DNA of 48,240 bases from Desulfobacterales bacterium (GTDB lineage: Bacteria > Desulfobacterota > Desulfobulbia > Desulfobulbales > JAJRZW01): positions 1-48,240 of the forward strand of contig JALWTY010000202.1 of the NCBI GenBank assembly GCA_026993265.1, given 5' to 3'. Within the stretch, counting starts at the first letter, position 1; every line of letters begins with the position of its first letter. Shown in pieces: positions 3,974 through 48,240 of the stretch. The position numbers were made by a program, and so were the translations under genes. A model generated the notes under the pieces. That model was not told the DNA's origin, searched no databases, and saw only the letters and a program-made list of their open reading frames with translations.

Positions 3974-5334
3974 AGGAAAGCACGTTTCACCCCGTCCCTT
4001 CAGTGGACTGGCGGCGGTTTCATCCGCCGCTGGTCCGGATCCAGGAGAGTGCGCCTAATCCTGTGGGGCGGCGGGTGCTCTGGGCATTGTTTTCCCTGCT
4101 CGTGTTCCTGATCGCATGGGCGTTGCTCGGCCGCCTCGATGTCGTCGCCGTTGCCGAGGGCAGGCTCGTGCCCGAGGGGTATCTCAAGATTGTGCAGCCT
4201 GCTGAGGCCGGCGTCGTAAAGGAGATCCTTGTGCATGAGGGTGAGCGGGTTCGGGCCGGGCAGGTTCTCATGCGCATGGATACGGTCATGGCGGAAGCGG
4301 ATATCGCCGCCATGGCGTTGGAACAGGCCCGCCTGCGCCTGACGTTGGCCCGCATCGAGGCGGAACTTGATGGGCGGTCTTTTGAGCCGGAGGACGGCGG
4401 GTTTCCGGCACTTGCGCGGGAGCTGACGGAGCAGTTCCGGGCCAATCGGGAAGCCTTGGCTGCGGCCCTCGCAGAGGAACGTAGTCGGCTCCGAAGGGCC
4501 GAACAGGAATTGGCCGCGGCCCGTCAGCAGAAGACCCGACTGGAATCCGTGCTGCCATTCTACCGGGAAGAGGAGGCTGCGCTCGAGCAGCTCGGCGAGA
4601 AGGGATATTCCGGAAAACTGGAATTGATCACGAAACGGCGGGAAAGGATAGAAAAGGAACAAGAGCTGGCTACGCAGGTTCATGTGATCGCCTCGGCCCA
4701 GGCCGCCATCGAGGAGGCGCACAAGAAGCTCGCGCAGATCGAGGCCGATTACCGGCGCCGTCTGCATGCCGAACGGCAGGAGGTGAGGGCGCAGTTGGAC
4801 CGGCTCGTCCAGGAGCTGGAAAAACAGAAGCACCGCCGTGATCTCCTTGAACTCAGGGCACCCCGAGAGGGTGTCGTCAAAGAGTTGGCGACGCATACGG
4901 CGGGTACCGTGGTGCAGCCCGGTACCGTACTGGCGACTCTCGTGCCGGATACGAAGAAACTGAAAGCGGAGGTCTGGGTGTCGAATGAAGATGTCGGGTT
5001 CGTCCATGTGGGGCAGGAGGTGGCCCTCAAGTTCGCACCCTATCGTTTCCAGAAATACGGTATGGGGCGGGGCCAGGTAGCTTATGTCAGTGCGGATGCG
5101 TTGACGGCGGAAGAAGTCCGAGAGGCGGGTTTTCCCGTGATGCCCGGTGCTCCGTTACGCTATAAAGCGTTGGTAGCCTTGGAAAAGAACGTGTTGGAGC
5201 ATAAAGGACACAACTATCCCTTGACGGCGGGCATGCACGTCGTGGCCGAAATACGTCTCGGAGAACGCACGGTGGCCGAATACCTGCTCTCCCCGATTCG
5301 AAAGGTATGGCAAGAAGCGGGGCGGGAACGATAG
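3970..5334 (+). CDS. HlyD-family type I secretion membrane-fusion (periplasmic adaptor) protein
   Basis: 454 aa with an N-terminal TM segment (VLWALFSLLVFLIAWALLG), a lipoyl-like segment (VVKEILVHEGERVRAGQVLMRMD), a long coiled coil (aa ~110-300) and a beta-barrel C-terminus ending ...TVAEYLLSPI. It is translationally coupled to the RTX gene. Confidence 0.9.
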   Translation: MKESTFHPVPSVDWRRFHPPLVRIQESAPNPVGRRVLWALFSLLVFLIAWALLGRLDVVAVAEGRLVPEGYLKIVQPAEAGVVKEILVHEGERVRAGQVLMRMDTVMAEADIAAMALEQARLRLTLARIEAELDGRSFEPEDGGFPALARELTEQFRANREALAAALAEERSRLRRAEQELAAARQQKTRLESVLPFYREEEAALEQLGEKGYSGKLELITKRRERIEKEQELATQVHVIASAQAAIEEAHKKLAQIEADYRRRLHAERQEVRAQLDRLVQELEKQKHRRDLLELRAPREGVVKELATHTAGTVVQPGTVLATLVPDTKKLKAEVWVSNEDVGFVHVGQEVALKFAPYRFQKYGMGRGQVAYVSADALTAEEVREAGFPVMPGAPLRYKALVALEKNVLEHKGHNYPLTAGMHVVAEIRLGERTVAEYLLSPIRKVWQEAGRER

Positions 5335-5371
5335 TAAGAGGTTCGAACTGGAAGTCAATCTGCGGCTCCTC

Positions 5372-5956
5372 TTACTTCTTGGTGTCTCGAGGGAGAGAGC
5401 GTCCTCCGGGAAAGTACCGGTAGAAAGTGGCGGGGGACACGCCAAGTTGTTCGGCAATTTCCTGTACGGTGAGGCTGTCGTCCTTCAGCAAGGTTTTGCC
5501 GACCTGGATCTGCTTGGGTGAGAGCTTTCGTTTCCGACCAGGCTTGCGGCCGCGTTTCCGTGCTGCCTCGAGGCCGGCCTTCGTGCGCTCCCGGATCAGG
5601 TTTCGCTCGAACTCTGCCAGAGCACCCATGAGGTGGAAGAAGAGGCGGCCAGTGGCCGTTGTGGTGTCGATCTGCTCCTGGAGGCTGCGCAGGCCGACAC
5701 TCCGCTCCTCCAGCTCGTCTGCGATCCGGATCAGGTCCCGGAGGGAACGGCCAAGGCGGTCCAGGCGCCAGACCACCAGGACGTCGCCAGGTCGGAGCGC
5801 CTTCATGCAGGCGGTCAGGCCTGGGCGGTCGGCCTTGGCGCCGGAGAGGCGGTCCTCGTAGATATGGCTGGGCTCGACACCAGCCTCGGTCAGCGCGTCG
5901 CGCTGAAGCGACAGATCCTGGTCGTCCGTGGAGACGCGCTGGTAGCCAACGAGCAT
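5372..5956 (-). CDS. Serine recombinase (resolvase/invertase family)
   Basis: 194 aa with the catalytic N-terminus MLVGYQRVSTDDQ, the motif VWRLDRLGRS and a C-terminal HTH (LTVQEIAEQLGVSPATFYRY). It sits exactly where GC-rich sequence switches to AT-rich sequence. Confidence 0.9.
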   Translation of the reverse strand: MLVGYQRVSTDDQDLSLQRDALTEAGVEPSHIYEDRLSGAKADRPGLTACMKALRPGDVLVVWRLDRLGRSLRDLIRIADELEERSVGLRSLQEQIDTTTATGRLFFHLMGALAEFERNLIRERTKAGLEAARKRGRKPGRKRKLSPKQIQVGKTLLKDDSLTVQEIAEQLGVSPATFYRYFPGGRSLPRDTKK

Positions 5957-6276
5957 GGCGAAGGCCTCGCGTTGTATCTCGAATCCCGTGAGATGGTAGA
6001 TTATTTTGAGATATTATTTCAAGAGATATTTTTGAGAGGCCTTAGGACTAGGCAGGGGAGTAGCGCCACAGGCCTCTCATAAACGGTCATTTTTGGGACC
6101 TGCTGTGCCGGTCTTGGATTGGACAAAGGTCAGTGAAGTTTGAGCATTCATAGTTGGTGGGGAGTGGAAATTGGTTAAAGTGGGAGAATAGGCGGTGTGT
6201 CAACAATTTTTACTGGCGCGACGAGGTTGTAATTTTTTGATTTAACTGAACTATTTGGATTAGAGTGCATTTTTCC

Positions 6277-6293
6277 TGTCAAAATATTTGACA
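6277..6293. promoter_or_regulatory. 17-bp palindrome TGTCAAA-ATA-TTTGACA (candidate recombinase or repressor binding site; contains TTGACA)
   Basis: Perfect 7-bp arms with a 3-bp spacer. It lies 320 bp upstream of the recombinase start and 165 bp upstream of the 6457 operon. The TGTC half-site is reminiscent of resolvase res half-sites. Confidence 0.35.
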
Positions 6294-6456
6294 GATGTGA
6301 GTTACTTCACAATACTCCCCTATCCTATCTGGTTGATCTACCACACCTTTTGCTTAAGGCGCGGATTTTGCATGGAAAAACCAGATCGCCAGCTTCAAGA
6401 CTTCCGCTAGTTGGCCGATCAGGGCAAATGAGCAGCCACGAATATGAGGAGACGCC

Positions 6457-6957
6457 ATGTACGCAGCATCTTGCAAAGATGTTGAGTCAACGGTCATTAA
6501 TGCCTGCAATGTGCTTGGTAACTTCAAGGACGAGGGTGGCTTGCAGCGGGTCGTGGATGAAACAGTCGAAAATCTCACACACCTAGCGTGTTACCTGACA
6601 GCGGTGCATCACATCGTCCAAGGGGCGGCAGAGCTGCTAGAAGTGTGTTCCTCAACAAAAGTTATCGATCCCGACGATAGACTCTCTTCTATCATTGAGC
6701 AGGTAGAGAATGCGATCGAGCATACCATCGAAATGATGAAAGGAAAGAGATCATCAGCGCTCATGGATGACGATCTCTACGGACGTAACGAAAAACGCGT
6801 AACAGAGGCCTACAGTCGCACTATCAAGGCCTATGCGGCTCTGCATGATGCGGCAGTGAGATTGCGGTGGGCCATCATGGAGCATGATGCGGATCTTTCG
6901 CCTGTAAGTGACGCTTTCGAAAATATGGAAGATCTCGTTGCCAGTCTGAGCGCATGA
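6457..6957 (+). CDS. Hypothetical all-helical protein, first gene of a 4-gene operon (candidate atypical antitoxin)
   Basis: 166 aa with an ATG preceded by GAGGAG. It ends 9 nt before the RelE-like gene. I recognise no family. The acidic C-terminal tail is ...SDAFENMEDLVASLSA, and there is an R-x5-H string (RWAIMEH) near the C-terminus. Confidence 0.6.
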   Translation: MYAASCKDVESTVINACNVLGNFKDEGGLQRVVDETVENLTHLACYLTAVHHIVQGAAELLEVCSSTKVIDPDDRLSSIIEQVENAIEHTIEMMKGKRSSALMDDDLYGRNEKRVTEAYSRTIKAYAALHDAAVRLRWAIMEHDADLSPVSDAFENMEDLVASLSA

Positions 6958-6966
6958 TGTTCTCTG

Positions 6967-7257
6967 ATGCGCCCGCATCCTGTAAGGAAAATCCGTTTCA
7001 AGGATCGCTTCAAGAAAGACTACAGAAAATTGCCGGAAGATTTACAGCGCCAAGTTGGCAAAGCAATCGAAGCTTTGAAACAAGGTCCTTCTCCTAGGTG
7101 GTTGCGGTTCGAGAAACTGCAGGGATACAGGAACCCAGCTATTTATACGATTCATGTGACACCAAACCATAGCCACAAGATTTCATTTGAAATGGATGGC
7201 GATGAAGCGATTTTGAGGCGCGTTAGTACGCACAAATTGATTGATAAGTCGCCGTGA
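6967..7257 (+). CDS. RelE/ParE-superfamily type II toxin
   Basis: 96 aa with the typical layout: KIRFKDRFKKDYRKLPEDLQRQVGKAIEAL...LRFEKLQGYRNPAIYTIHVTPNHSHKISFEMDGDEAILRRVSTH. Confidence 0.8.
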   Translation: MRPHPVRKIRFKDRFKKDYRKLPEDLQRQVGKAIEALKQGPSPRWLRFEKLQGYRNPAIYTIHVTPNHSHKISFEMDGDEAILRRVSTHKLIDKSP

Positions 7258-7294
7258 ACTAGGACAAAATCTTTATTGATCGGATTTAAATCCC

Positions 7295-7822
7295 ATGAGT
7301 GCGCTAGCTGCAGAAGTCAAAAATTTAGATCTAGATGATGCTGAGAGATTGGCGGAAGAAGTACGTCTCGAATTCTGGCGTGATGTGTTTCCTGTGGATC
7401 CAGTCGTGATTGCCAAACAGATGGATCTGAAAGTGATCGAGGCCGAACTTCCTGCGCCTGTTTCTGGCGGGTTGCTGCGTAAGGATGGGGACGATCCAGT
7501 TGTCGTGTTAAATGAATCTGAGCCGAAGACAAGAAAGCGATTTACCTGTGCACATGAGCTTGGTCACTATGTTTATCGGCTTGAAACAGGATGTGATCGT
7601 GAATTTGAATACACGGATTTGAGAAATCATTTATCCTCAATGGGCATGGATAAGGAGGAAATGTTCGCCAATAGATTTGCAGGCGCATTGTTGATGCCCC
7701 GGTCTAAGGTGGAAGAACTCATGAAAAATCATTTGCCTGTTTTGGTTATGGCGCATAAGTTCGGTGTGTCGGCCGATGCGATGCGAGTTCGCCTTAAGGT
7801 GCTGAATCTATTTGATTGTTGA
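7295..7822 (+). CDS. ImmA/IrrE-family (COG2856) zinc metallopeptidase
   Basis: 175 aa with the HExxH motif in FTCAHELGHYV and the downstream EEMFANRFAGALLMP typical of the family. No fused or adjacent HTH partner is present. Confidence 0.85.
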   Translation: MSALAAEVKNLDLDDAERLAEEVRLEFWRDVFPVDPVVIAKQMDLKVIEAELPAPVSGGLLRKDGDDPVVVLNESEPKTRKRFTCAHELGHYVYRLETGCDREFEYTDLRNHLSSMGMDKEEMFANRFAGALLMPRSKVEELMKNHLPVLVMAHKFGVSADAMRVRLKVLNLFDC

Positions 7823-11429: not shown

Positions 11430-11630
11430 ATGCTTGTTTTGACCAGGAAATCGGGGGAGTCCATTCTGATTCGCCTCTCTGACGAGGTCGATCCCGACAC
11501 GCCCGTGCGGGATCTGTTCCAGAAAGGCCCCATAAGGATACAGTTGCTGAACAGGCAGGACCGGAGCCACCGCATCGGCATCGAGGCGCCGGCGGAGTTC
11601 GTGGCCCTGCGCGAGGAGATCGCCGACTGA
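11430..11630 (+). CDS. csrA: CsrA/RsmA-family RNA-binding regulator, RsmN/RsmF-like variant with an internal insertion
   Basis: 66 aa: MLVLTRKSGESILI...(insert SDEVDPDTPVRDLFQKGP)...IRIQLL.....HRIGIEAPAEFVALREEI. The CsrA hallmarks (MLvLtRk.GEsi.I, iGI.AP..v.i.ReEi) are present. The extra ~18 aa sit where RsmN/RsmF carries its internal helix. Confidence 0.85.
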   Translation: MLVLTRKSGESILIRLSDEVDPDTPVRDLFQKGPIRIQLLNRQDRSHRIGIEAPAEFVALREEIAD

Positions 11631-11852
11631 GGTGGGGCGCGGCTCTCGGGCTGCTGCTGCCAGCGGTCTGCGCCGGCTGGACCAATGGTCCCTCGGGAAA
11701 CGCCGTCACCGATGAAGCGTGGGAGTGCGCGGACCCGCCGTACTAGCGCAATCATTGCTGTCTGTTCAGGCGGGGCAATCGGGATCGGGTACTGGGTCAT
11801 CGATGAAAAGATGGCATGGAAGATTGGCAAATAGAGGGCCTGCTCGGAATGG

Positions 11853-14800
11853 ATGAGAAATACAAATATAGGGGGCAGGTGGTTATTGTTGATCTGCCGG
11901 ATTTACGAAGAAACCGAATATAACTCAACGAGTGTAAAGAATATGTTTAGGGGGGGGAGAAACGGGGTTCGCCCAGTATGCCCTTGCATTATAGCTTTTC
12001 CCTTGTCGGTGATCTGCCTCGTTTCTTATTTTCTGTCCGGACTGATAATTCTTTCCACCCCTGATTTGGTGCGCGCCCATTCAGACGGGCTTCTGTGGGA
12101 CGCAAATAGAGCGCACCAAGAATGCATAAATCTAATTCCCCGAGGAGACCCTGGTCAGTTTACCTGTACTTTTTGTGCTGGCAATCATGAGATAAATCCT
12201 GGCGACACCTGTACATATCTGTATGGTGGTGGAGGTCAAACAAGAACGGTGCTGGCGCCAATGTGGGTAAATCTGCAATATGGGAAGTTCTATTCTGGAA
12301 GCCATTACGATCCTACTCTTTGCCCGGCGGGGACGGAATACAATCAAGACGGATACTGCTCACCAGGGCTGCCAACTTATTCACCGCCAAATATTGAGAA
12401 AAGCAAGAATCTTGGCTGCGGAAGGAATAGTAGTCTGGCGGGAAATCCCTGCAATCCAGCTACGGGCAACAAGTATTTGTTTGAGAAAGATTTTGCGGCT
12501 CCTAACGGGTCACTTTCTTTTGTTCGCTACTACAATAGTTTTTTGGACAAGAATTTTGGCCTTGGCTATGGCTGGACGACACCGTATTTTTCAAGACTTG
12601 AGATAGGCGGGGCTACAATAGTGGCGCGACGACCGAACGGACGCGGAGATATATTCATCGACAATTCCGGCCAATGGATTGGTGATGCTGATAGTAATTT
12701 AAGTTTGCATCAAGATGTATCTGGTTTTACGTTACAGCTGCCGGATGGAACAACAGAAAAATACGATACAAATGGAAAGCTCGTTTCAATAACTGATGTC
12801 TTTGGCAACAACACAACATTGACATATGATACCCAAGGGCAGATTAGAACCATATCCTCCGATACCGGAGAGTCACTGACTTTTACCTATAACGCTTCAA
12901 AAATTGGGACCGTCACTGATCATTCTGGTCGTGTCTGGGTATACCGGTATAACCCATCGGAAGGTCTCGAGTACGTGGAAAATCCAGATACAACAATTCG
13001 CCAATATCATTACGAAGATGTAAATTTCCCACATTTACTTACTGGCATCACTGACGAGCGGGGTATTCGTTATGCGACCTATCAATATGATGAGCAAGGT
13101 GGGGTCATAGCAAGTTACCACGCGAATGATGTAAATCGAATTGATATTTCATACGTGGATAGCAATACAAGGATTCTCAAGAATAGCACTAATGAGACTA
13201 CTACCTATGCGATCACCCAGCAGCTAGGCGTCGCCCTAGTTACCAACATCTCCGGTCCTGGCTGCTCCACCTGCGGCACCGGCAACACCAGCTATCAATA
13301 CGACCCCGCCAACAACAACCTCCTCAGCAAGACAGAAAACGGCGTCACCACGGAATACGGCAACTACGACGCCAAGGGCCAGTACGGCTATAAGATCGAG
13401 GCCAAAGGTACGCCTGAGGAGCACCGTACCGACTACACCTACGACAACCGCTTCTACAATAAGATTACCTCCATCACCGAACCCTCGGTCTTCCCAGGCA
13501 ATCAGAAGATCACTACCTATACCCACGATGACTGGGGCAACCGCACCTCGGAGACCATTTCGGGCTTCGACCCGGTCGGTAATCCGGTTTCCCGCACCAC
13601 TACTTGGCAATACGGCGGCGATGGCACCCCCGAATGTGATGCCGTGCCGCTGCACCAGCTCTGCCGGGTCGACGGGCCGCGCACGGATATCGAGGACATC
13701 ACTTGGTATCGCTACTATCCCAATGACAGCTCGATCCCGGTGGGCAGCCGGGCTCGGCTGAAGGAGGTCGAGGACGCCAACGGGGTGCTCATTCGATCCA
13801 ACATTAAGTACACCGCCACCGGCAAGGTCGCCTCCGAGGACCGTCCCAACGGCCTGCGTCTCACCTACAGCTACTACTATGGCAACGACCGCCTGGAATC
13901 CCTCACCGAGACCGACACGGCCACTGGAGAAAGCCGTACCACCCGCTGGACCTATCTCCCCACTGGCGAAGTGGAGAGCATCACCCAGGGCGATGGCACC
14001 CCCGAGGCGGTCACCCTGTACTTCGGCTACGACGACGCCCGCCGCCTGGTCCGGGTCACCGACGGCCTCGGCAACTACATCGAATACACCCTCGACACGG
14101 AGGGCAACCGCCTGGCAGAGAAGACCTATGACACTGCCGGCACCCTGAAAAAGGCCATCACCCAGACCTTTGACCCCTATAACCGCCTCGACACCACCGC
14201 CCAGGCCAATGAATCAGTGGACTATGATTTCGCCCCCAATGGCACCCTCGACCAGACGACCGACGGCCGGGGTGTGATCACCGATTACAGCTACGATGCT
14301 CTGAAGCGCCTGGTCAGCGCCACCCAGGACCCGGGCGGTACCGATCCCGCCACCGCTGATACCGCTGTCACCTACGGCTATGATCCCGCCGGCAACCTGA
14401 CCTCGGTCACTGATCCCGTCGGCGGCAACACTACCTATGCCTACGACGACCTAGGCAATCTGGTTTCGCGGACCAGCCCCGACACTGGTACCACCAGCTT
14501 CCGGTACGACGAGGCCGGCAACCTGATCGAGAAGACCGACGCCCTGGGGCAGGTCTTCACCTACAGTTACGACGCCCTGAACCGCCTCACCCGCATCGAC
14601 GCCCCTGGCACGGCCGACGACATCGAGTATGTCTATGACCGCTGCGCCAAGGGTGTTGGCCGGCTGTGCCGGGTGAGCACCGCCGATGGCGCCGTGCACT
14701 ATGCCTACGATGCTTTCGGCGACATCACCCTTCACCAGGCTGTCCGCTATGAATACGACGCCGCGGGCCGCCTCCAGGCCCTGACCTACCCTAGCGGGGC

Positions 14801-16796
14801 CCGGGTGAGCTACAGTTACGATGCCGCCGGCCAGGTCACCCAGGTCGACTTCCAGCATGGCAGCCTGACCCGCACCTTGGCCCAGGGCGTCACCCACGCC
14901 CCCTTCGGCCCCGTCACCGCTTTCACCTACGGCAACGGCCTGACCTTCAGCCAGAGCCTCGATACCGCCTACCGCAGCCTGCGCCGCACCGTGCCCGGGA
15001 TCCTCGACCTCGACTACACCAGCACCGGCTATCCGGAGGGCTACGACGCCAACGGCAACCTCCTGGTCCGACGCGATCTCGTCGCCGGAGCCGACACCGG
15101 CTTCGCCTACGATGCCCTGAACCGCCTCGACACCGCTGACGGCCCCTTCGGCACCCGGGACTACGACTATGACAAAAACGGCAACCGGGCCCAGCTCACC
15201 GCGGACGGCCAGGCCACGGCCTACAGCTACACCTCCAACAGCAACCGCCTGAACAAGATCGGCGCCACCGACGTTCTGCTGGACGCCAACGGCAACACCC
15301 TCAACCAGGGCCTGTGGACCTACGCCTACACCACCCACAACCGCCTCAAGACCGCCACCGAGGACACCACCCTCCGGGCCACCTTCGCCTACAACGGCCT
15401 GGGCCAAAGGAGCCAAAAAACCGACGCCGTCACCGGCCGTGGAAAACTGTTCCTCTACGGAACCCAGGGCGAACTGCTGATGGAAGCCGACGCCGATGGC
15501 AACATCCTCACCGAGTACATCTACCTCGATGGCGAACTGCTCGCCCTCTACCGCCCGGACGAGGATCAGGACGGCACCCCCAATGCTGAGGAGCCGCCCG
15601 AGAACCTGCCCGCCAACCTCGACAGCGACGGCGACGGCGTCCTGAACCGGGATGAATGGCTGATCCACGGCAGCGACAGCCTGGATGCCGACACGGACGG
15701 CGACGGTATTCTGGACGGCGAGGAGATTGCCCAGGGCACCGACCCCGTCTATGCCCTGAGCTATCCAGGGGACGGCGACGTCAACCAGAACGGCGAGGTC
15801 AATGTTGGTGATCTCCTCCTGGTGACCCAGATGGCCCTGAAGATGCGCGCCCCGACGCCGGAGCAGTTCGTGCACGCCGACATCAACCGAGACGGCATCA
15901 TCGACGTGGTGGATGTGCTGCTGTTGCAGCGGAAGATCCTGTACCCGACCGGCAGCGCGGCGCTCGATACAGGCGACGAAACCAGGCTGGCGAACAAAAC
16001 CGAAGCCGTTGTTCCCGCGCGGGCTGGAATCCAGACCCTTCTGGACTATCTCATCCCGCTAGCCCATGCCGCTGCCGGCGATCCTGGGCAGCTATACTAC
16101 GTGCACAACGATCATCTGGGAACGCCGTGGGCTGTGACCGATGACAGCGGAACCAAGGTCTGGAGCGTAAGCTACGATCCGTTCGGCAAGGCGACGGTGG
16201 ATGCGGGCAGTATGATTGAGATGAATGTGCGGCTTCCGGGACAGTATTATGACCAGGAGACCGGGCTGCACTATAACTACTTCAGGTATTACGATCCCCG
16301 AACAGGTAGGTACATCACAGCGGATCCGCTTGGATTGGCGGGTGGGGTCAATATATACACGTACGCCCTGAATAATCCGTTATATTGGATTGACCCTTAC
16401 GCGCTTGATATTACTGTTTCGTTTAATCCCAACGCAGCGGCTGGCTTTGGCCACGTTGGACTTGGAGTTAACACTCTAGATACGGTAGGGCAGAGACCTC
16501 AGCCAAGTGCGAGTTCCATTCGAATGGCGTTAGGATTGAATGTTCCAGGGGAAATATCTCCAGATCCGACCGCGCCATTAAGTGTCACGATACCGACTAC
16601 GTCAGAGCAAGATCGAAATGCGCAGAAATGTATTGAGACGCGGACACAGCAACAGCAAGATTACAATTTGTATAACAATAACTGCACTCTGTTTGTTAGA
16701 CAGTGTTTGGGGGCGGCGGGGATAAATACGCCTAATACCATCCTTCCAAGAACGCTATTTAATGATCTTCAACGCAATTTTGCTGGAAATCCGTAA
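11853..16796 (+). CDS. RHS/YD-repeat polymorphic toxin (1647 aa)
   Basis: There are dozens of YD repeats (e.g. YTYDDLGNLVSRTSPDTGTTSFRYDEAGNLIEKTDALGQVFTYSYDALNRLT). The RHS core reads LYYVHNDHLGTPWAVTDDSGTKVWSVSYDPFGK...GQYYDQETGLHYNYFRYYDPRTGRYITADPLGLAGG (PxxxxDPxGL cleavage motif at 16323-16337), followed by a ~130-aa variable tip. An alternative start at 11943 (MFRGG...) would give a signal/TM-like N-terminus. Confidence 0.9.
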   Translation: MRNTNIGGRWLLLICRIYEETEYNSTSVKNMFRGGRNGVRPVCPCIIAFPLSVICLVSYFLSGLIILSTPDLVRAHSDGLLWDANRAHQECINLIPRGDPGQFTCTFCAGNHEINPGDTCTYLYGGGGQTRTVLAPMWVNLQYGKFYSGSHYDPTLCPAGTEYNQDGYCSPGLPTYSPPNIEKSKNLGCGRNSSLAGNPCNPATGNKYLFEKDFAAPNGSLSFVRYYNSFLDKNFGLGYGWTTPYFSRLEIGGATIVARRPNGRGDIFIDNSGQWIGDADSNLSLHQDVSGFTLQLPDGTTEKYDTNGKLVSITDVFGNNTTLTYDTQGQIRTISSDTGESLTFTYNASKIGTVTDHSGRVWVYRYNPSEGLEYVENPDTTIRQYHYEDVNFPHLLTGITDERGIRYATYQYDEQGGVIASYHANDVNRIDISYVDSNTRILKNSTNETTTYAITQQLGVALVTNISGPGCSTCGTGNTSYQYDPANNNLLSKTENGVTTEYGNYDAKGQYGYKIEAKGTPEEHRTDYTYDNRFYNKITSITEPSVFPGNQKITTYTHDDWGNRTSETISGFDPVGNPVSRTTTWQYGGDGTPECDAVPLHQLCRVDGPRTDIEDITWYRYYPNDSSIPVGSRARLKEVEDANGVLIRSNIKYTATGKVASEDRPNGLRLTYSYYYGNDRLESLTETDTATGESRTTRWTYLPTGEVESITQGDGTPEAVTLYFGYDDARRLVRVTDGLGNYIEYTLDTEGNRLAEKTYDTAGTLKKAITQTFDPYNRLDTTAQANESVDYDFAPNGTLDQTTDGRGVITDYSYDALKRLVSATQDPGGTDPATADTAVTYGYDPAGNLTSVTDPVGGNTTYAYDDLGNLVSRTSPDTGTTSFRYDEAGNLIEKTDALGQVFTYSYDALNRLTRIDAPGTADDIEYVYDRCAKGVGRLCRVSTADGAVHYAYDAFGDITLHQAVRYEYDAAGRLQALTYPSGARVSYSYDAAGQVTQVDFQHGSLTRTLAQGVTHAPFGPVTAFTYGNGLTFSQSLDTAYRSLRRTVPGILDLDYTSTGYPEGYDANGNLLVRRDLVAGADTGFAYDALNRLDTADGPFGTRDYDYDKNGNRAQLTADGQATAYSYTSNSNRLNKIGATDVLLDANGNTLNQGLWTYAYTTHNRLKTATEDTTLRATFAYNGLGQRSQKTDAVTGRGKLFLYGTQGELLMEADADGNILTEYIYLDGELLALYRPDEDQDGTPNAEEPPENLPANLDSDGDGVLNRDEWLIHGSDSLDADTDGDGILDGEEIAQGTDPVYALSYPGDGDVNQNGEVNVGDLLLVTQMALKMRAPTPEQFVHADINRDGIIDVVDVLLLQRKILYPTGSAALDTGDETRLANKTEAVVPARAGIQTLLDYLIPLAHAAAGDPGQLYYVHNDHLGTPWAVTDDSGTKVWSVSYDPFGKATVDAGSMIEMNVRLPGQYYDQETGLHYNYFRYYDPRTGRYITADPLGLAGGVNIYTYALNNPLYWIDPYALDITVSFNPNAAAGFGHVGLGVNTLDTVGQRPQPSASSIRMALGLNVPGEISPDPTAPLSVTIPTTSEQDRNAQKCIETRTQQQQDYNLYNNNCTLFVRQCLGAAGINTPNTILPRTLFNDLQRNFAGNP
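15768..15941 (+). other. Dockerin-like duplicated EF-hand segment embedded in the RHS core, preceded by TSP3-like Asp-rich repeats (from ~15555)
   Basis: GDGDVNQNGEVNVGDLLLVTQMAL...HADINRDGIIDVVDVLLLQRKIL is the two-fold D.N.DG.v...D signature of type I dockerins. Upstream, DSDGDGVLNRDE...DADTDGDGILDGEE resembles thrombospondin type 3 repeats. Confidence 0.6.
16407..16793 (+). other. C-terminal toxin tip of the RHS protein: His...Cys permuted papain-like (LRAT/PPPDE-like) candidate
   Basis: After DPLGL...WIDPYAL the sequence becomes AT-rich. It has an ordered His (AAGFGHVGLGV) followed by ...YNNNCTLFVRQCL (an NCxxF-type Cys), the order seen in LRAT/PPPDE-type permuted NlpC/P60 folds. This is a motif-level call only. 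Confidence 0.4.
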
Positions 16797-43473: not shown

Positions 43474-43526
43474 GCGCGGGGCCTTTCCAAGGTGCCTGGG
43501 GGAAGCAGCTTGGAAAGGCCCCGCGC
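43474..43526 (-). other. Perfect 18-bp stem hairpin directly after the stop of the 43541 gene
   Basis: GCGCGGGGCCTTTCCAAG-(17 nt)-CTTGGAAAGGCCCCGCGC with no U-tract. It is a candidate mRNA 3'-end stabiliser or protein-binding inverted repeat. Confidence 0.6.
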
Positions 43527-43540
43527 AGGCGGGGCAAGGT

Positions 43541-43855
43541 TCAGGAACGGTCGGCCTTCTCGACGGCCTTGAGCGCCTCGTGGTAGGCGCGATCGACGTC
43601 CTCCCAGTCGACGGAGCCGCCCCGTTCCTCGCCGCGGCGGTAGGCCGCGACGAGAAGACGGGCGGCGCTCATGGCGTCGGACTCTCCGCTTTCGTCGAGC
43701 CGAGCGAGACGACGCTCCAGGACCGGCCGTAGCGCGGCCTCGAGCACCGTTCGAAGCTCCTCGTCCAAGGGGAAGCTGCCGTGGTCGGTGAGGACCTCGC
43801 AGGCCCGCGGGAGCTGCTTCGAGAGGACGTAGGCGATCTTCCATTTCTCGTCCAT
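43541..43855 (-). CDS. Hypothetical 104-aa protein
   Basis: The start lies 3 nt after the stop of the upstream gene (coupled). The sequence is acidic and helical. I recognise no family. Confidence 0.6.
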   Translation of the reverse strand: MDEKWKIAYVLSKQLPRACEVLTDHGSFPLDEELRTVLEAALRPVLERRLARLDESGESDAMSAARLLVAAYRRGEERGGSVDWEDVDRAYHEALKAVEKADRS

Positions 43856-43858
43856 CGC

Positions 43859-44269
43859 TCAGTCCTCCTCCGGCAGCATGATGGTGACCACGGGCTCGCC
43901 CTGGTCGCCGGGGCCGGCGACGATCTTGAGCACCGTCTCCACGGCGTCCGAGCTCATGCCATCTCGCGGGACGCGGTGGAGCGGGTAGAGCAGCCGGTCC
44001 TGGCCGGGGCGGCCCCGGATGGCCATGTGCGCCATCCAGAGCACGTCCCAGAGCCTGCCGTCCTGGTCCTGGTGGACCCCCTGGATGTCGGAGTCCCGGT
44101 CGTTCCAGGCCACGCAGTCCTCCCAGGCCGCCTGGGTGAGCGCGACGGGCCAGTTGAAGCCCGCCTCCCTGGCCGTCTCGGTCACGTCGACCAGCACGCC
44201 GTCGGCGATGGCCTGGGCGCGCGTGTAGGTGAAGATGACTTCTCCGAAGAGATTCGTGGATACATTCAT
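43859..44269 (-). CDS. Conserved plasmid/ICE small protein (AIADGVLVDV-type)
   Basis: 136 aa from MNVSTNLFGEVIFTYTRAQAIADGVLVDVTETAREAGFNWPVALTQAAW.... I have seen this N-terminal pattern in mobile-element proteins of unknown function. It is preceded by the structured leader. Confidence 0.65.
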   Translation of the reverse strand: MNVSTNLFGEVIFTYTRAQAIADGVLVDVTETAREAGFNWPVALTQAAWEDCVAWNDRDSDIQGVHQDQDGRLWDVLWMAHMAIRGRPGQDRLLYPLHRVPRDGMSSDAVETVLKIVAGPGDQGEPVVTIMLPEED

Positions 44270-44340
44270 GGTGCGTCTCCTCTGCTGTGTTGAAGGGAGG
44301 GGCACCGCTCCCGCCGGGAGGGGTGCCCCGGCGGGGTCGT
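44270..44340 (-). promoter_or_regulatory. Structured 5' leader, copy 1 (SD-sequestering element)
   Basis: On the minus strand: CACGACCCCGCCGGGGCACCCCTCCCGGCGGGAGCGGTGCCCCTCCCTTCAACACAGCAGAGGAGACGCACC-ATG. P1 is CCCGCCGGG/CCCGGCGGG. GGTGC..CTCC pairs with GGAG..GCACC. Confidence 0.6.
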
Positions 44341-44352
44341 GAAAATGGGCGC

Positions 44353-44586
44353 TCAGGCCCTGTTCAGCTTCTCGAGCGCTGCGCGCGTCCGTTGCAACTT
44401 CATCGCCATTGCGGCGATGTCCTCATCGAGTCCCTCGATACCAGCCCGGGCGCCAAGTTGCAGATCGTGCAAGTCCGATTGGAGCCTGTCCTCCTGCATC
44501 TCGAGCACCAGTCGGGCCGAGGAGACCGAAATGCAGCCCTCGAGATCGTCGGGCCACAGATCCAGAACGATGTCTTCCACATTCAT
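44353..44586 (-). CDS. Hypothetical 77-aa acidic protein
   Basis: GGAGG lies within the 12-nt gap after the upstream stop (coupled). Confidence 0.55.
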   Translation of the reverse strand: MNVEDIVLDLWPDDLEGCISVSSARLVLEMQEDRLQSDLHDLQLGARAGIEGLDEDIAAMAMKLQRTRAALEKLNRA

Positions 44587-44598
44587 CGTGCGGCCTCC

Positions 44599-45153
44599 TC
44601 AATGGCCGTGGCACAGGCGATGCAGCGCCTCGTGGGCCTCGGCAATCGCCTCGTCGGCCAGCTCGAGCGCCGTCTCCGTGAAGTAGTCCTCGTCAGAGTC
44701 CGACTCGATGCCGGAAAGCGAGGCCTCGCCGATCAGGATGCCCGCGCGCCAGGCCTGTACCCGGATGGTTTCGTACCACCAGGTGCGCCCGTAGGTGTGG
44801 GCCCGTTCGTAGAGGACGTGCCGGTTCTCGGGATCGGCGGGGATGAACCAGGGGAACTCGCCCCGCTCGCCGCGATGCCGGACGGCGCCCGGCGCCCACT
44901 GGTTGGTGAAATGCCCCAGGTCGTCGCCGTGGATCCACCAGCCGTCCTCGTCGATCAGGCGCCGGGCGACGAGATCGAAGCCGTTCTGACGCCACCGGGC
45001 GACGGGACGATGGTTCTCCTCGGCCCACTCGATGCCGAGTTCGGCGATCCGACGACGAAGCCGGGCCTGGTCTCGAGCGATGTGAAGGGCGAGGGCCGCG
45101 GGAAGGCCCCGGGTACGAAGTTGGCGATACTCGCCTCGAACGTCGATGTGCAT
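44599..45153 (-). CDS. Hypothetical 184-aa protein
   Basis: From MHIDVRGEYRQL..., with AAGGAGG 6 nt upstream. It is Trp-rich (WWIHGDDLGHF...WWYETIRVQAW) with an acidic C-terminus. It is preceded by the structured leader. Confidence 0.65.
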   Translation of the reverse strand: MHIDVRGEYRQLRTRGLPAALALHIARDQARLRRRIAELGIEWAEENHRPVARWRQNGFDLVARRLIDEDGWWIHGDDLGHFTNQWAPGAVRHRGERGEFPWFIPADPENRHVLYERAHTYGRTWWYETIRVQAWRAGILIGEASLSGIESDSDEDYFTETALELADEAIAEAHEALHRLCHGH

Positions 45154-45230
45154 GGTTGCCTCCTTGGTGAAACGTGCCGGAGGCGCCATGCCCCCGGCCG
45201 GGGGACGGGCCCCCGGCGGGGTGGAAGGGT
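45154..45230 (-). promoter_or_regulatory. Structured 5' leader, copy 2
   Basis: On the minus strand: CTTCCACCCCGCCGGGGGCCCGTCCCCCGGCCGGGGGCATGGCGCCTCCGGCACGTTTCACCAAGGAGGCAACC-ATG. P1 is CCCCGCCGGGGG/CCCCCGG(C)CGGGG. GCCTCC pairs with GGAGGC. Confidence 0.65.
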
Positions 45231-45410
45231 TTACAGAAGACCGTAGACCAGGAGCCAGGACGGATGCCCGTGAGGACAGACGCCGTCGGGTTCGACCTCG
45301 CATCCGTCGGTGGCCACGGCGACACCGTCATAGGCCATCTGTTCCAGTTCATCCATCTCCGGAGCAGGAATCTCCGGTTCTGGCCATCCGGAACGTCTTG
45401 CTGCTTGCAT
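45231..45410 (-). CDS. 59-aa Cys/His-containing protein missing from the ORF track (below the size cut-off)
   Basis: MQAARRSGWPEPEIPAPEMDELEQMAYDGVAVATDGCEVEPDGVCPHGHPSWLLVYGLL. GAGGAG lies upstream and it has its own copy of the leader. The DGC.VEPDG.CPHGHPSWL pattern is familiar from other mobile elements. Confidence 0.6.
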   Translation of the reverse strand: MQAARRSGWPEPEIPAPEMDELEQMAYDGVAVATDGCEVEPDGVCPHGHPSWLLVYGLL

Positions 45411-45470
45411 GGGTTGTCTCCTCTGCTGGGTTGAAGGGAAACCGGCGGCGCCGGCGGGGTGGAAGAAAGG
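45411..45470 (-). promoter_or_regulatory. Structured 5' leader, copy 3 (degenerate P1)
   Basis: On the minus strand: CTTCCACCCCGCCGGCGCCGCCGGTTTCCCTTCAACCCAGCAGAGGAGACAACCC-ATG. GGTT.TCC pairs with GGA..AACC. The ~70 nt further upstream (GGGACCGACGAGACAGGGG...) resemble the region upstream of copy 6. Confidence 0.5.
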
Positions 45471-45629
45471 ACCGAGACCTTGCGGCCACCCCTGTCTCGT
45501 CGGTCCCAGGGGTTTCTGCTGCCTTTGGCCCAGGCAGCGGGGCGTCGAAAGCCTCTCCGCAGCGGCTGCGCTCTGGAGAGGCCTCCCGGATTCCTCGGAG
45601 GAGAGGCTCCCCTTGCGGGGAGCCGTCGG

Positions 45630-46004
45630 TCATGCCAGATGGGCCTGCAAGCGCTCGGACCCGTGGACCAGGCGGTGTGCCAGGGCACGGGCGACCCGTG
45701 CGTGGTGAACGCCACCCGCATCCGCCAGCACGTGTTGCTGGGAGACGCTGCCAAGGCGCTGGGTGCCCTTGCGCACTTCCACATGCACCGTGACGCGGGG
45801 TCGGTCGCAAGGATCGCCGGCTTCCGGGCTCACATGGGCCCGGATGGCGAGGCCGTGCTCGACCCAATCGGCCCGGAATGCCGCAGGGCCCCATTCGACC
45901 CGTTGCCAGCGGATCCGCCTGGCGTGGTGAATTTCCCGCAAACGCCGCAGACGGCGCAGCAGGAGGGAGATCGCCCGAGGGCGGTGTGCAAGAGGATGAA
46001 GCAT
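45630..46004 (-). CDS. Hypothetical 124-aa basic protein
   Basis: From MLHPLAHRPRAISLLLRRL..., with AAGGAGG upstream and a full leader copy. The coding call rests mainly on that context. Confidence 0.5.
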   Translation of the reverse strand: MLHPLAHRPRAISLLLRRLRRLREIHHARRIRWQRVEWGPAAFRADWVEHGLAIRAHVSPEAGDPCDRPRVTVHVEVRKGTQRLGSVSQQHVLADAGGVHHARVARALAHRLVHGSERLQAHLA

Positions 46005-46080
46005 GGTTGGCCTCCTTGGTTGAGAGAGCCGGAGGGCCATGCCCCCTGCCGGGGGATGGGCCCCCGGCGGGGTTGAAAAC
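46005..46080 (-). promoter_or_regulatory. Structured 5' leader, copy 4
   Basis: On the minus strand: TTTCAACCCCGCCGGGGGCCCATCCCCCGGCAGGGGGCATGGCCCTCCGGCTCTCTCAACCAAGGAGGCCAACC-ATG. GGCC(C)TCC pairs with GGAGGCC. Confidence 0.65.
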
Positions 46081-46128
46081 CTGACTGGCGTCAGGCATCG
46101 TGGGTTGGAACGATGCGGGAGGTTCCCG

Positions 46129-46383
46129 ATGCTCGTCGATCCAGAGACCGGTCTTGTACGACTCACGCGCGAGGAGTTCGACGCCTATCGGCGCGCGGCC
46201 GCGCGCAACGGTCATGCGGTGAACCGGGTCGGGAACGCCCGAGAGCTGATGCGGGCCGCCGTCGAAGGACTGCCCGACAGCCTGCTCGATGATCTGCTGG
46301 AATTCGCCGAGACGGGCAGCTCGCGGCTCACCCGCCTTCCTTCGCCCGAAGCGCTGCGAGCGCGGCTTTCCGGAGACGAATGA
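46129..46383 (+). CDS. Hypothetical 84-aa protein, the only plus-strand gene in the array
   Basis: MLVDPETGLVRLTREEFDAYRRAAARNGHAVN... with GGGAGG 7 nt upstream and GC-rich third positions. Its 3' end overlaps the convergent 46328 gene by 56 nt. Confidence 0.45.
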   Translation: MLVDPETGLVRLTREEFDAYRRAAARNGHAVNRVGNARELMRAAVEGLPDSLLDDLLEFAETGSSRLTRLPSPEALRARLSGDE

Positions 46384-46555
46384 GGACGAGGACCTCCTCG
46401 TCCTCCAGCGTTTCCCATCCCTTCGGCAAGGCCTCGATGTAGGCCAGCACCAGCTCGGGGTTCTCTTCCGCTTTCTCGAACAGCCTTCTTGCCGCCTCGC
46501 GCCGGTGCTTGAGGTCCGTCAGGAAGGCATGAACGCGATCGTCTTTTGGGGTCAT
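46328..46555 (-). CDS. Hypothetical 75-aa helical protein
   Basis: MTPKDDRVHAFLTDLKHRREAARRLFEKAEENPELVLAYIEAL..., preceded by a leader copy with a near-perfect anti-SD. Confidence 0.6.
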   Translation of the reverse strand: MTPKDDRVHAFLTDLKHRREAARRLFEKAEENPELVLAYIEALPKGWETLEDEEVLVLIRLRKAALAALRAKEGG

Positions 46556-46637
46556 GGTCTTCTCCTTGCCTTGGTTGAAAGAAGGCCGGGGAAGACCGCC
46601 CCGGGCCGGGGAAGGTGTTCCCCGGCGGGGTGGAAGA
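46556..46637 (-). promoter_or_regulatory. Structured 5' leader, copy 5
   Basis: On the minus strand: CTTCCACCCCGCCGGGGAACACCTTCCCCGGCCCGGGGCGGTCTTCCCCGGCCTTCTTTCAACCAAGGCAAGGAGAAGACC-ATG. GGTCTTCCCC pairs with GGAGAAGACC (9 of 10). Confidence 0.7.
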
Positions 46638-46649
46638 TGTGCCCAGGTG

Positions 46650-46952
46650 CTAGCTGGCCACCAGCTTGCAGACGTGGCCGACCACGAAGCCGAACGGCAC
46701 GGACCGGTGCGGCGGGTGGACGATGCCGGCGTCGATCAGCGCTTCCAGCATTCCCTGGTTCTCGGACCAGTCCTTGATGACCACTTCGTCAGGGTCCAGC
46801 TGAATGTCCGGAACGTTCACCGTGGCGGTCGCGACGGGTGACCCATCGTCGGCGACCAGGGCAATCGCCGGCCTGCCGTCGGCATACTTCTGGAGCCTTG
46901 CGGTACAGCGCCAGTCCTGGAACCGCACCACCCCGAGCGTGATGTTGCTCAT
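46650..46952 (-). CDS. DUF4313-like small protein
   Basis: 100 aa from MSNITLGVVRFQDWRCTARLQKYADGRPAIALVADDGSPVATATVNVP...IKDWSENQGMLEALIDAGIV. GGAGG lies in the 11-nt gap after the radC stop. Confidence 0.6.
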   Translation of the reverse strand: MSNITLGVVRFQDWRCTARLQKYADGRPAIALVADDGSPVATATVNVPDIQLDPDEVVIKDWSENQGMLEALIDAGIVHPPHRSVPFGFVVGHVCKLVAS

Positions 46953-46963
46953 GGGACACCTCC

Positions 46964-47473
46964 TCACATCAAGCCACGTTCGGCGAACGACACGCTTCCG
47001 CATGCCGAGACCACGAAGTGGTCCAGCACGCGGACGTCGATCAGCGCGAGCGCGTCCTTGAGCCTCCGGGTGATCGATTGATCCGCCATGCTGGATTCGG
47101 CCACCCCGGAAGGGTGGTTGTGGTAGAACACCACGGCGGCCGCGTTCGATTCCAGGGTCTGTTGGACCACGACCCGAGGATGGATCGAGGCCCCATCCAG
47201 GGTGCCCTGGAACAGCTCCCGCATGTCGATGATCCGGCACCTGCTGTCGAGAAACAGGCATCCGAAGACCTCGTTGGGGCGGTCCGCCAGCTTGAGTCGC
47301 AGGTACCTCCGGGTGTCGTCCGGGTTTTCCAGGCGTTTTCCAGGTTGGTGCCGCGCTTCCATGATCTGGAGGGCGAGCTTCACGAGGGTATCCTGCTCCA
47401 CCGTGGTGAGATTGCTGGCATGGAGACCAGCGAAGCGGTTCATGTCGAGCGATACGACGTTGTTACGTGGCAT
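46964..47473 (-). CDS. radC: RadC-like JAB/MPN-domain protein
   Basis: 169 aa from MPRNNVV... with ...FGCLFLDSRCRIIDMRELFQGTLDGASIHPRVVVQQTLESNAAAVVFYHNHPSGVAESSMADQSITRRLKDAL (HNHPSG JAMM-type motif). It is preceded by a leader copy. Confidence 0.9.
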   Translation of the reverse strand: MPRNNVVSLDMNRFAGLHASNLTTVEQDTLVKLALQIMEARHQPGKRLENPDDTRRYLRLKLADRPNEVFGCLFLDSRCRIIDMRELFQGTLDGASIHPRVVVQQTLESNAAAVVFYHNHPSGVAESSMADQSITRRLKDALALIDVRVLDHFVVSACGSVSFAERGLM

Positions 47474-47550
47474 GGTGACCTCCTTGGTTGAACAGGCCGG
47501 AGACACCACGCCCCGACCGGGGAATGGAGTTCCCCGGCGGGGTTGAAAGG
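47474..47550 (-). promoter_or_regulatory. Structured 5' leader, copy 6 (upstream of radC)
   Basis: On the minus strand: TTTCAACCCCGCCGGGGAACTCCATTCCCCGGTCGGGGCGTGGTGTCTCCGGCCTGTTCAACCAAGGAGGTCACC-ATG. GGTG.C.TCC pairs with GGA.G.CACC. Confidence 0.65.
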
Positions 47551-47746
47551 ATGAACCGGAAGCCCAGTTGGGCTCGTCCCTGTCTCGCCGGTTCCAGGGA
47601 CGTTGCCGCGATGCCCTCGCGGCGGGGGGATGAAGGCGATCTGGAGGTTTTCCGCAAGCTGTTGAAAGCAACAGGCTGGGGAAACCCCCCGTCGAGGTTG
47701 ATGGAAGATGAAAGGGTGCCGGGGCGAACGCCCCGGCGGATTGGAA

Positions 47747-48193
47747 TCAGCCGACCAGCTTGAGCAAGCCAACGAGGGCGATCATCGTGCCGACGCTCCA
47801 CATGATGTGTCTGTTGCCTTCGGCGATGATCTGCGCCTTGAGACCAGCGACTTCGGTTCGGACCTCGGCGACGTCCTGCTTGAGCTCGCTGCGGACCATG
47901 GCGATCTCGCCGCGGACCTCGGCGATCTCTTGCTTGAGTTCGCTCCGAACCGTGGCGATCTCCTGCCCGAGTTCGCTCCGAACTGTGGCGATCTCCTGCC
48001 CGAGTTCGTTACGGACCTTGCCGATCTCTTGCTTGAGTTCGGCGATGTCGTCCTTGGTGGCCAGATGGGCCATGACGAACTCGCCGAAGGCTTCGGCCTC
48101 CGCCTCTGCGACGGCCTCGGCTTGTTCGGCTGGCATGCCCGCGTCGCGGAGCTTGCGGGCCAGCTTGAGGGTGTCGAATGCGACCATGTTCAT
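47747..48193 (-). CDS. DUF1640-like coiled-coil protein with a C-terminal TM anchor
   Basis: 148 aa: FDTLKLARKLRDAGMPAEQAEAVAEA..., then 11-aa periodic repeats (ELGQEIATVRS twice, plus variants), then IMWSVGTMIALVGLLKLV. Confidence 0.8.
   Translation of the reverse strand: MNMVAFDTLKLARKLRDAGMPAEQAEAVAEAEAEAFGEFVMAHLATKDDIAELKQEIGKVRNELGQEIATVRSELGQEIATVRSELKQEIAEVRGEIAMVRSELKQDVAEVRTEVAGLKAQIIAEGNRHIMWSVGTMIALVGLLKLVG
47882..48034 (-). repeat. 33-bp (11-codon) tandem repeats inside the DUF1640-like gene
   Basis: Units 47936-47968 and 47969-48001 differ at one base. Flanking units are progressively diverged. Confidence 0.8.
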
Positions 48194-48240
48194 TACTTTA
48201 CCTCCGATCCTGATGGTCGTGAACCCGACGGAGGTCCGCC
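48194..48240 (-). promoter_or_regulatory. Structured 5' leader, copy 7 (truncated by the window edge)
   Basis: On the minus strand: GGCGGACCTCCGTCGGGTTCACGACCATCAGGATCGGAGGTAAAGTA-ATG. ACCTCCG pairs perfectly with CGGAGGT (the SD). The P1 region lies outside the window. Confidence 0.5.

Follow-up and report, generated by a model that had tools for sequence, protein, structure and literature searches.

A two-helix leader whose second helix covaries over the Shine-Dalgarno sequence recurs before establishment genes of MPF_G integrative conjugative elements

The DNA analysed here (the window) is a 48,240-nucleotide (nt) stretch of contig JALWTY010000202.1 from a Desulfobacterales bacterium. It carries part of an MPF_G (ICEclc/pKLC102-type) integrative conjugative element (ICE), and near its end lie ten small, co-oriented minus-strand genes, seven of which are preceded by the structured 5' leaders that are the subject of this report. 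Pfam matches were obtained for three of the ten genes, i.e., the CCDC90-like/DUF1640 coiled-coil gene (48193), radC (47473; 1.8e-39) and the DUF6573 gene (44269), and Pfam assigned no family to the other seven. The type IV secretion system (T4SS) module is located downstream of the leader region on the same strand, where a SLT transglycosylase, the coupling protein TraD, DUF2895, TraC and TraG_N are encoded. On the source contig, a 110-kb metagenomic scaffold (L082), genes for topoisomerase III, a response regulator and ParB are found upstream, and the ArdC and DUF3577 genes sit just past the window end. Coordinates preceded by L082 refer to the source contig, and those without a locus name refer to the window.

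Leaders are 60-90 nt in length and contain two helices only (Table 1). A single-stranded flank, (A/C)ACC in general and TTCMACC-like in the window, is followed by a GC-rich hairpin, P1, and then by a gene-specific helix, P2. P1 has the form ACCC..GGGG(A/G)-loop-(Y)CCCC..GGG, with 12-13 bp in the window copies, and is separated from P2 by 0-3 nt in nearly all copies. The 5' arm of P2 is a pyrimidine segment immediately 3' of P1, while its 3' arm is formed by the Shine-Dalgarno (SD) sequence and the spacer, often together with the AUG. An earlier reading of the window, made without database searches (the sequence-only reading), had placed leaders of this kind before seven minus-strand start codons. 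Minimum free energy (MFE) folding of the 100 nt before each of these codons reproduced them at the same places, with the shared TTCMACC flank, P1 and P2; the exceptions are copy 3, which has degenerated, and copy 7, which the window end truncates. P1 and a P2 pairing with the SD..ATG region were obtained for the starts at 44269, 45153, 46004, 46555 and 47473. Pairing extends to the ATG in copies 2 and 4 (CATGG:CCATG) and in copy 6 (CGTGGTG:CACCATG). The P1 apex switches between GGGGG/CCCCC and GGGGAA/TTCCCC as the sequence-only reading had described. The word spanning flank and P1, TTCMACCCCGCCGG, occurs nine times in the window against 2.0 expected, a count reached in none of 100 shuffles. 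Relative to dinucleotide shuffles, leaders have a mean folding z-score of -4.2, and 97% of them fall below -2.

Table 1. Leader copies and associated features. L082 denotes the source contig. R1 and R2 are scores against the first- and second-round covariance models (CM).
Feature	Position	Strand	Description
Copy 1	44267-44343	-	Flank TTCACGACC, unbulged P1, P2 GGTGC..CTCC:GGAG..GCACC; DUF6573 gene, ATG 44269; R1 21 bits, R2 28.6 bits, E 0.0006-0.002 (L082 13851-13927)
Copy 2	45151-45228	-	184-aa gene, ATG 45153; P2 CATGG.GCCTCC : GGAGGC..CCATG over SD and ATG; R1 95, R2 78 bits
Copy 3, degenerate	45408-45468	-	Short P1, no stable P2, ribosome-binding site predicted open; doubtful 59-aa open reading frame, start 45410
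Copy 4	46002-46079	-	124-aa gene, ATG 46004; divergent gap beside plus-strand open reading frame; R1 88, R2 71 bits
Copy 5	46553-46637	-	75-aa gene, ATG 46555; P2 GGTCTTCCCC:GGAGAAGACC; R1 52, R2 58 bits
Copy 6	47471-47549	-	radC, ATG 47473; P2 CGTGGTG.TCTCC : GGAGG.CACCATG, two G:U pairs; R1 90, R2 84 bits
Copy 7	48191-48240	-	DUF1640/CCDC90-like gene, ATG 48193; P2 ACCTCCG:CGGAGGT; P1 past window end
U domain	47549-47657	-	Hairpin and pseudoknot-like helices directly 5' of copy 6
U domain, second window copy	45465-45569	-	5' of copy 3
U domain, source contig copies	L082 5284-5368, 6031-6111, 9148-9234		
Orphan flank and P1-like hairpin	47715-47746	-	TTCCAATCCGCCGGGGCGTTCGCCCCGG; just after DUF1640 stop; no P2 or ATG
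Ten co-oriented small genes	43541-48193	-	Starts 48193, 47473, 46952, 46555, 46004, 45410, 45153, 44586, 44269, 43855

The count of seven leaders holds for the window and falls short of the element as a whole, since the source contig carries 13. These comprise six additional copies and a complete copy 7 with its P1 (L082 9921-10003), all on the coding strand and all within 8.6 kb between parB and the DUF6573 gene. Copy 3 was matched by nhmmer (E 3e-7) and gave no match in the CM search. Some leaders that precede unrelated genes are nearly identical, such as L082 6112-6190 and 10645-10723, or 7186-7269 and 7767-7852; in the former pair, the likeness extends through an upstream domain (the U domain, described below) and the first two codons. 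Whole leader cassettes have therefore been recently copied or subjected to gene conversion. The orphan hairpin yielded a weak, P1-only CM match (L082 10457-10477), and could be either a leader remnant or a 3' stabiliser. The TTCA-type motif TTCAACCAA, to which the sequence-only reading drew attention in the P2 loop, is specific to this element; across the family, the loop sequence AACC is only about 3-fold enriched (22% versus 7%). On these grounds, a conserved small RNA target in the P2 loop was discarded.

Related loci were collected by a RadC-based scan of one genome per species. The 80 loci obtained are mostly from gammaproteobacterial metagenome-assembled genomes (MAGs; Sedimenticola, Thiodiazotropha, Chromatiales). 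Searches were made with nhmmer and then with a CM (R1) built from four close copies with a hand-set structure, the matches of which were used to build a second model (R2). A consensus of 22 leaders obtained with MAFFT and RNAalifold was useless because P2 was misaligned, and was discarded in favour of the hand-specified structure and CM iteration. R1 gave 134 matches; a locus typically has three or four, their places relative to radC are fixed, and nearly all share its strand. R2 gave 146 matches at E<0.1 in 55 loci, many with E-values of 1e-8 to 1e-15. An ATG-initiated open reading frame (ORF) of at least 45 aa opens at the match end in 126 of the 146 cases, in contrast to 12% for random positions. 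The downstream ORFs fall into at least 34 protein clusters, including RadC, DUF3577/STY4534, DUF6573, ArdC, a SNF2-type helicase, small membrane proteins and many unknowns. Matches are restricted to the segment between parB and traD. The same architecture is found in pKLC102 of P. aeruginosa, read through NC_019202, and in a Ralstonia MPF_G element.

Two of the related loci have further peculiarities. In a Pseudomonadales MAG element (L054), two identical ArdC-type leaders lie 1.4 kb apart; two tRNA genes immediately follow radC and a tmRNA gene is nearby (6551-6805 and 11595-11971), the latter of which may mark the integration site. In L001, the RadC protein of which is 96% identical to that of the window, almost identical leaders are inverted relative to each other at 24-108 (minus strand) and 149-232 (plus strand), at the end of a short MAG contig. 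This pair is probably an assembly artefact.

Pairing within the leaders is itself conserved by compensatory change, on the coding strand, in a structure that ends at the start codons of many unrelated genes. In 59 non-identical leaders from 11 elements, 91.1% of alignment cells are in standard pairs, compared with 76.6% in column shuffles, and changes on both sides of a pair were found at 18 of 23 pairs. The covariation score in this set is 0.33 versus 0.119 for shuffled alignments; none of 500 shuffles reaches it, and partners slid out of register score at most 0.056. The outcome is the same with 118 and with 141 distinct rows. Alignment-free duplex tests agree: the two arms of P2 pair at -15.5 kcal/mol when cognate and at -9.8 kcal/mol when non-cognate, and the corresponding values for P1 are -19.4 and -15.7 kcal/mol. 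Thus, the claim of the sequence-only reading that the P2 partner changes in each copy with the SD spacer is correct and general. Similarly, its central proposal, a covarying anti-SD helix sequestering the ribosome-binding site (RBS) at the head of each mini-operon, holds on 59-146 homologous leaders.

The types of mismatch observed bear on whether the structure is one of RNA or of DNA. G:U and U:G combinations outnumber A:C and C:A combinations by 194 to 42 in the CM alignment. The bias persists (71 to 23) at 1x1 mismatches within helices when folding forbids G:U, so that both strands are treated alike. Moreover, the sense strand is more stable overall, with a mean difference of 1.5 kcal/mol (p=0.002). 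An mRNA structure is favoured because the G:U bias is family-wide and because one arm of P2 always consists of SD, spacer and AUG.

The radC RNA (RF01754), described by Weinberg in 2010, shares with the leaders the elements in which it occurs, its gene neighbourhood (radC, anti-restriction and DNA-binding genes), its strand, its 5' untranslated region (UTR) location and its presence in several copies per element. Leaders also precede RadC, ArdC, DUF3577/STY4534, helicase and other genes, as expected for this RNA. Unlike the leaders, however, the radC RNA is a 149-nt, multi-hairpin, pseudoknotted domain. Its outer stem, three hairpins, pseudoknot and terminal ACCACCGC hairpin are not present in the leaders. 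RF01754 has no match at the gathering threshold (40 bits) either in the window or on the source contig, and relaxing the cut-off to E<=10 over 43500-48240 brought up none. The search is known to work because it detected five radC RNAs, with scores of 79-117 bits, in pKLC102 and the Ralstonia element. Four of these end 3-25 nt upstream of a leader match, without overlap, and a leader-like fold lies downstream of the fifth. Most leaders lack a radC RNA, and leaders are also present in the 3' flanks of radC representatives in Weinberg's Stockholm file. Since leaders occur alone and radC RNAs end upstream of them, the leader is a module located between the radC motif and the start codon. The suggestion of the sequence-only reading that the leaders might be the radC RNA motif is thus not borne out, although it came close: MPF_G ICEs are rich in radC RNAs, which together with STAXI account for 80% of the RNAs in these elements (Cury et al., PMC5587801), and true radC RNAs adjoin the leaders.

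No relevant match to Rfam 15 was obtained, at gathering thresholds or at E<=10, in the window, in 12 related loci or in positions 5300-7300 of locus L007, the source contig likewise gave nothing relevant, and literature searches returned no description of these leaders. Leaders that occlude the SD are a known kind of element, and the gonococcal genetic island has two. By the Rfam 15 and literature searches, three features appear undescribed, namely a family of portable leaders that occur in multiple copies and share a conserved first hairpin, the reuse of such a leader before dozens of unrelated establishment genes in beta- and gammaproteobacterial MPF_G elements, and the physical coupling of the leader to the orphan radC RNA.

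In the present element, some leaders are preceded by an additional domain of 85-110 nt, which we call the U domain. It was found by nhmmer 5' of five of the 13 leaders on the source contig, two of which are among the seven in the window. The domain is built from a hairpin (GCYGCS..SGCRGC), interleaved CCCYG/CRGGG and RACCGR/YCGGTY helices and an inner hairpin, and its paralogues carry compensatory changes at 7 of 18 pairs (RNAalifold). Among the loci compared, it was found in this element only. Because the U domain occupies the position that the radC RNA has in pKLC102 and is missed by RF01754, it may represent a sensor-like RNA domain that is either divergent or new.

Taken together, these data suggest that the leaders act in cis, in the 5' region of the mRNA, to lock translation of the first cistron in each module, and that P1 serves them as a handle or insulator; we assign this model a probability of about 0.6. 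It was chosen because the SD is predicted to be paired, because the RBS of leader genes is predicted to be less accessible than that of other genes, and because the gonococcal switches discussed below provide a precedent. The predicted probability that the SD is unpaired has a median of 0.035, and RBS accessibility is 0.32 for leader genes, lower than the 0.45 obtained for the remaining genes of these elements (p=2.5e-6). A second helix occluding SD and AUG is supported by MFE and partition-function folds and by the covariation of P2. According to the model, the leaders would be carried on the mRNA of the establishment/anti-restriction region, from parB/topB to traD, where P2 (approximately -12 to -21 kcal/mol) would keep translation initiation at the first cistron low, and later cistrons of a module would depend on the first through close coupling. 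P1 might hold P2 in register, keep upstream sequence from interfering with it or stabilise a processed mRNA; it might also be the binding site of a factor, encoded by the element or by the host, through which the lock is relieved. Some leaders have a sensor-like domain directly on their 5' side (the radC RNA in pKLC102 and Ralstonia, the U domain here), which could use the leader as its expression platform.

Several observations weigh against this model. The CM alignments were made to fit the structure and are biased towards G:U, and the alignment-free comparison of cognate and non-cognate arms was therefore added. In the window, the opposite strand of the five good copies folds at least as well as the coding strand (-43 to -52 versus -38 to -46 kcal/mol), and in four of them better; there, C.A positions of the coding strand at the P2 apex become G:T pairs. 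That P1 serves as a common handle and/or insulator is something we infer. Finally, so stable a lock needs an opener, and removal of a P1 arm, termination of translation upstream and heat all failed to open it in silico. A toggle in which the 3' arm of P1 (CCGGnGGGG) pairs with the anti-SD (CCUCCGG) was attractive in copies 2, 4 and 6, and was rejected because the SD stays paired without the 5' arm: when the flank and the P1 5' arm are removed, the median probability of an unpaired SD moves from 0.035 to 0.038. Moreover, the GG following the anti-SD is not conserved across the family. Opening by ribosomes that terminate upstream was also rejected, as the distance from the preceding stop to P1 is mostly greater than 20 nt, with a median of about 57 by a crude estimate.

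The most economical guess for the opener is a factor recognising the conserved flank and P1. A leader under CsrA/RsmA control would be expected to have two or more GGA motifs, at least one of them in a hairpin loop and overlapping the SD; in the present leaders, the GGA of the SD lies inside the P2 stem and not in a loop, and GGGGA is present on many, not all, P1 tops. An extension of the lock model posits an element-wide regulon, in which one trans-acting protein or RNA, of the ICE or of the host, would read the flank and P1 and open all P2 locks, producing a burst of establishment and anti-defence functions (ArdC, RadC, SSB-like and dozens of unknown proteins) only in transfer-competent donors or fresh transconjugants, with the radC RNA or the U domain as optional sensors. 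We regard this extension as tentative and, in its full form, somewhat unlikely.

Other functions have been considered for the same sequences. Leaders might be intercistronic elements of RNA processing or stability, in which P1 (and P2) form barriers to RNases, protecting 5' or 3' ends after cleavage in the flank, and set the half-lives of segments of a polycistronic transcript, occlusion of the RBS being secondary. P1 is very stable, lies between cistrons and is the most conserved part of the leader, the orphan P1 follows the DUF1640 stop without a P2, and the lack of promoter-like sites before the leaders (zero sigma-70-like sites, with three terminator-like sites versus 2.7 expected) fits polycistronic transcripts. 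Processing would, however, explain neither why the 3' arm of P2 always consists of SD, spacer and AUG and covaries, nor why the structure ends exactly at start codons, and we consider it unlikely as the main function. Less likely still is that the hairpins act in single-stranded DNA (ssDNA) during conjugative transfer or rolling-circle replication, in priming, as an ssDNA promoter or in protein loading. The genes of the region (ArdC, an SSB-like DUF3577 protein, RadC) are of the type that plasmid leading regions carry, the possibility was raised by Weinberg et al. for the neighbouring STAXI motif (PMC2864571), and the opposite-strand folds of the window copies, with their G:T apex pairs, speak for it. 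Against it stand the predominance, throughout the family, of G:U over A:C in the coding strand, the use of SD and ATG as one arm, for which an ssDNA function gives no reason, and stems of 12 bp without -35/-10-like boxes, unlike Frpo-type promoters. A hairpin acting on transferred ssDNA, which the sequence-only reading had listed among possible roles, is disfavoured by the G:U excess.

The near-identity of leaders before unrelated genes, which in one pair takes in the U domain as well as the first two codons, and the presence of the leader before at least 34 unrelated gene clusters would be expected if flank and P1 were recombination scars or cassette boundaries, i.e., homologous or site-specific (attC-like) crossover points with structure as a by-product. 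Compensatory changes across distant elements nevertheless indicate selection on pairing itself, and the element sits at the 5' end of genes with the RBS included. No integron-type integrase was noted in the annotated part of the window or in the source-contig flank, where no targeted search was made. We take shuffling to result from the repeats, and recombination as the primary function is very improbable. Slightly less probable again is that leaders are RNA thermometers, another role proposed in the sequence-only reading, or double-stranded DNA operators for a repressor, with P1 as two palindromic half-sites. A hairpin occluding the SD is a thermometer design, yet raising the temperature from 25 to 55 C in silico leaves predicted SD/ATG accessibility unchanged in 12 of 13 copies, and the stability of P2 greatly exceeds that of known thermometers. 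Each P1 arm, made of a C-run and a G-run, is nearly palindromic, as an operator might be; in contrast, the variable middle positions of P1 covary between arms and not within an arm.

The closest counterparts of a translational lock on these genes come from the gonococcal genetic island, where parA and traH have two-stem-loop 5' UTRs whose second stem-loop (SL2) occludes SD and AUG (Ramsey 2015; PMC8716806). Deletion of the stem-loops increases translation 10-400-fold and leaves mRNA unchanged. How far SL2 extends is limited by the first stem-loop (SL1), and the activator of the switches is not known (PMC8716806). Like the leaders, these switches belong to a horizontally acquired T4SS island, have a first stem-loop directly upstream (the counterpart of P1) and precede translationally coupled cistrons, and for parA, as for the leaders, no alternative fold freeing the RBS could be found. 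In the traH type, unlike in the leaders, such a fold frees the RBS when the 5' leg of SL1 (the counterpart of the P1 5' arm) is unavailable. The gonococcal leaders are two single-copy, experimentally proven elements, whereas those described here comprise 12-13 paralogues per element with a conserved P1 sequence, are known from sequence alone and, in contrast to the gonococcal pair, span beta- and gammaproteobacterial MPF_G ICEs. The likeness noted here is one of architecture.

Structured RBS hairpins, such as the coat and replicase operators of phage MS2, provide a more general parallel, in which a stable helix over SD and AUG sets the rate of translation initiation; rules relating RBS stability to translation were reportedly formulated by de Smit and van Duin. 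MS2-type hairpins are single and gene-specific, whereas the leaders are portable two-part units with a common first hairpin, used before dozens of unrelated genes. Frpo/ssi ssDNA promoters resemble the leaders in being repeated hairpins before early establishment and anti-defence genes of conjugative elements (PMC11541004). Frpo hairpins, however, are long and imperfect and restore -35/-10 boxes on the strand that is transferred (PMC11541004), while the leaders are short, lack promoter boxes, include the RBS and show an RNA-type G:U bias on the coding strand.

MPF_G elements (ICEclc, PAPI-1/pKLC102, PAGI and relatives of ICEHin1056) spread virulence, catabolic and resistance genes. A reusable leader locking the RBS of every module would be a simple layer of control over the timing of establishment and anti-restriction genes. 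The leader would also serve as a ready marker for accessory 'early' genes, since it precedes the genes of at least 34 protein clusters, most of them uncharacterised. In addition, the radC RNA, without a function since 2010, gains a defined downstream partner as candidate expression platform, which makes its mechanism directly testable in pKLC102/PAPI-1 of P. aeruginosa.

The gene organisation around the leaders deserves some qualification. The three leaderless genes (46952, 44586 and 43855) lie close behind the preceding stop, as the sequence-only reading had stated, with gaps of 3, 12 and 11 nt, given here in no particular order. The 59-aa ORF behind copy 3 is doubtful: the gene caller of the source chose a 201-aa ORF on the opposite strand (45188-45793, plus strand) in its place. 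A further plus-strand ORF at ~46129-46383 (~85 aa, with its own GGGAGG), overlooked in that reading, converges on the 46555 gene, and the region is therefore no simple one-strand array. A search of a plasmid database for near matches to the region gave only two short DUF6573 matches. Within the DUF1640/CCDC90-like gene, five 33-nt tandem coding repeats at 47848-48066 encode 11-residue units of the EIATVRSELGQ type. Elsewhere in the window, the plus strand encodes a very large RTX/He_PIG adhesin-like protein (5-3973) and an RHS/YD-repeat toxin with a dockerin domain (11853-16796), either of which could be element cargo or flanking chromosome. A CsrA/RsmA paralogue (MLVLTRKSGESILI...) is encoded beside the toxin gene at ~11430-11630 (plus strand), ~32 kb from the leaders.

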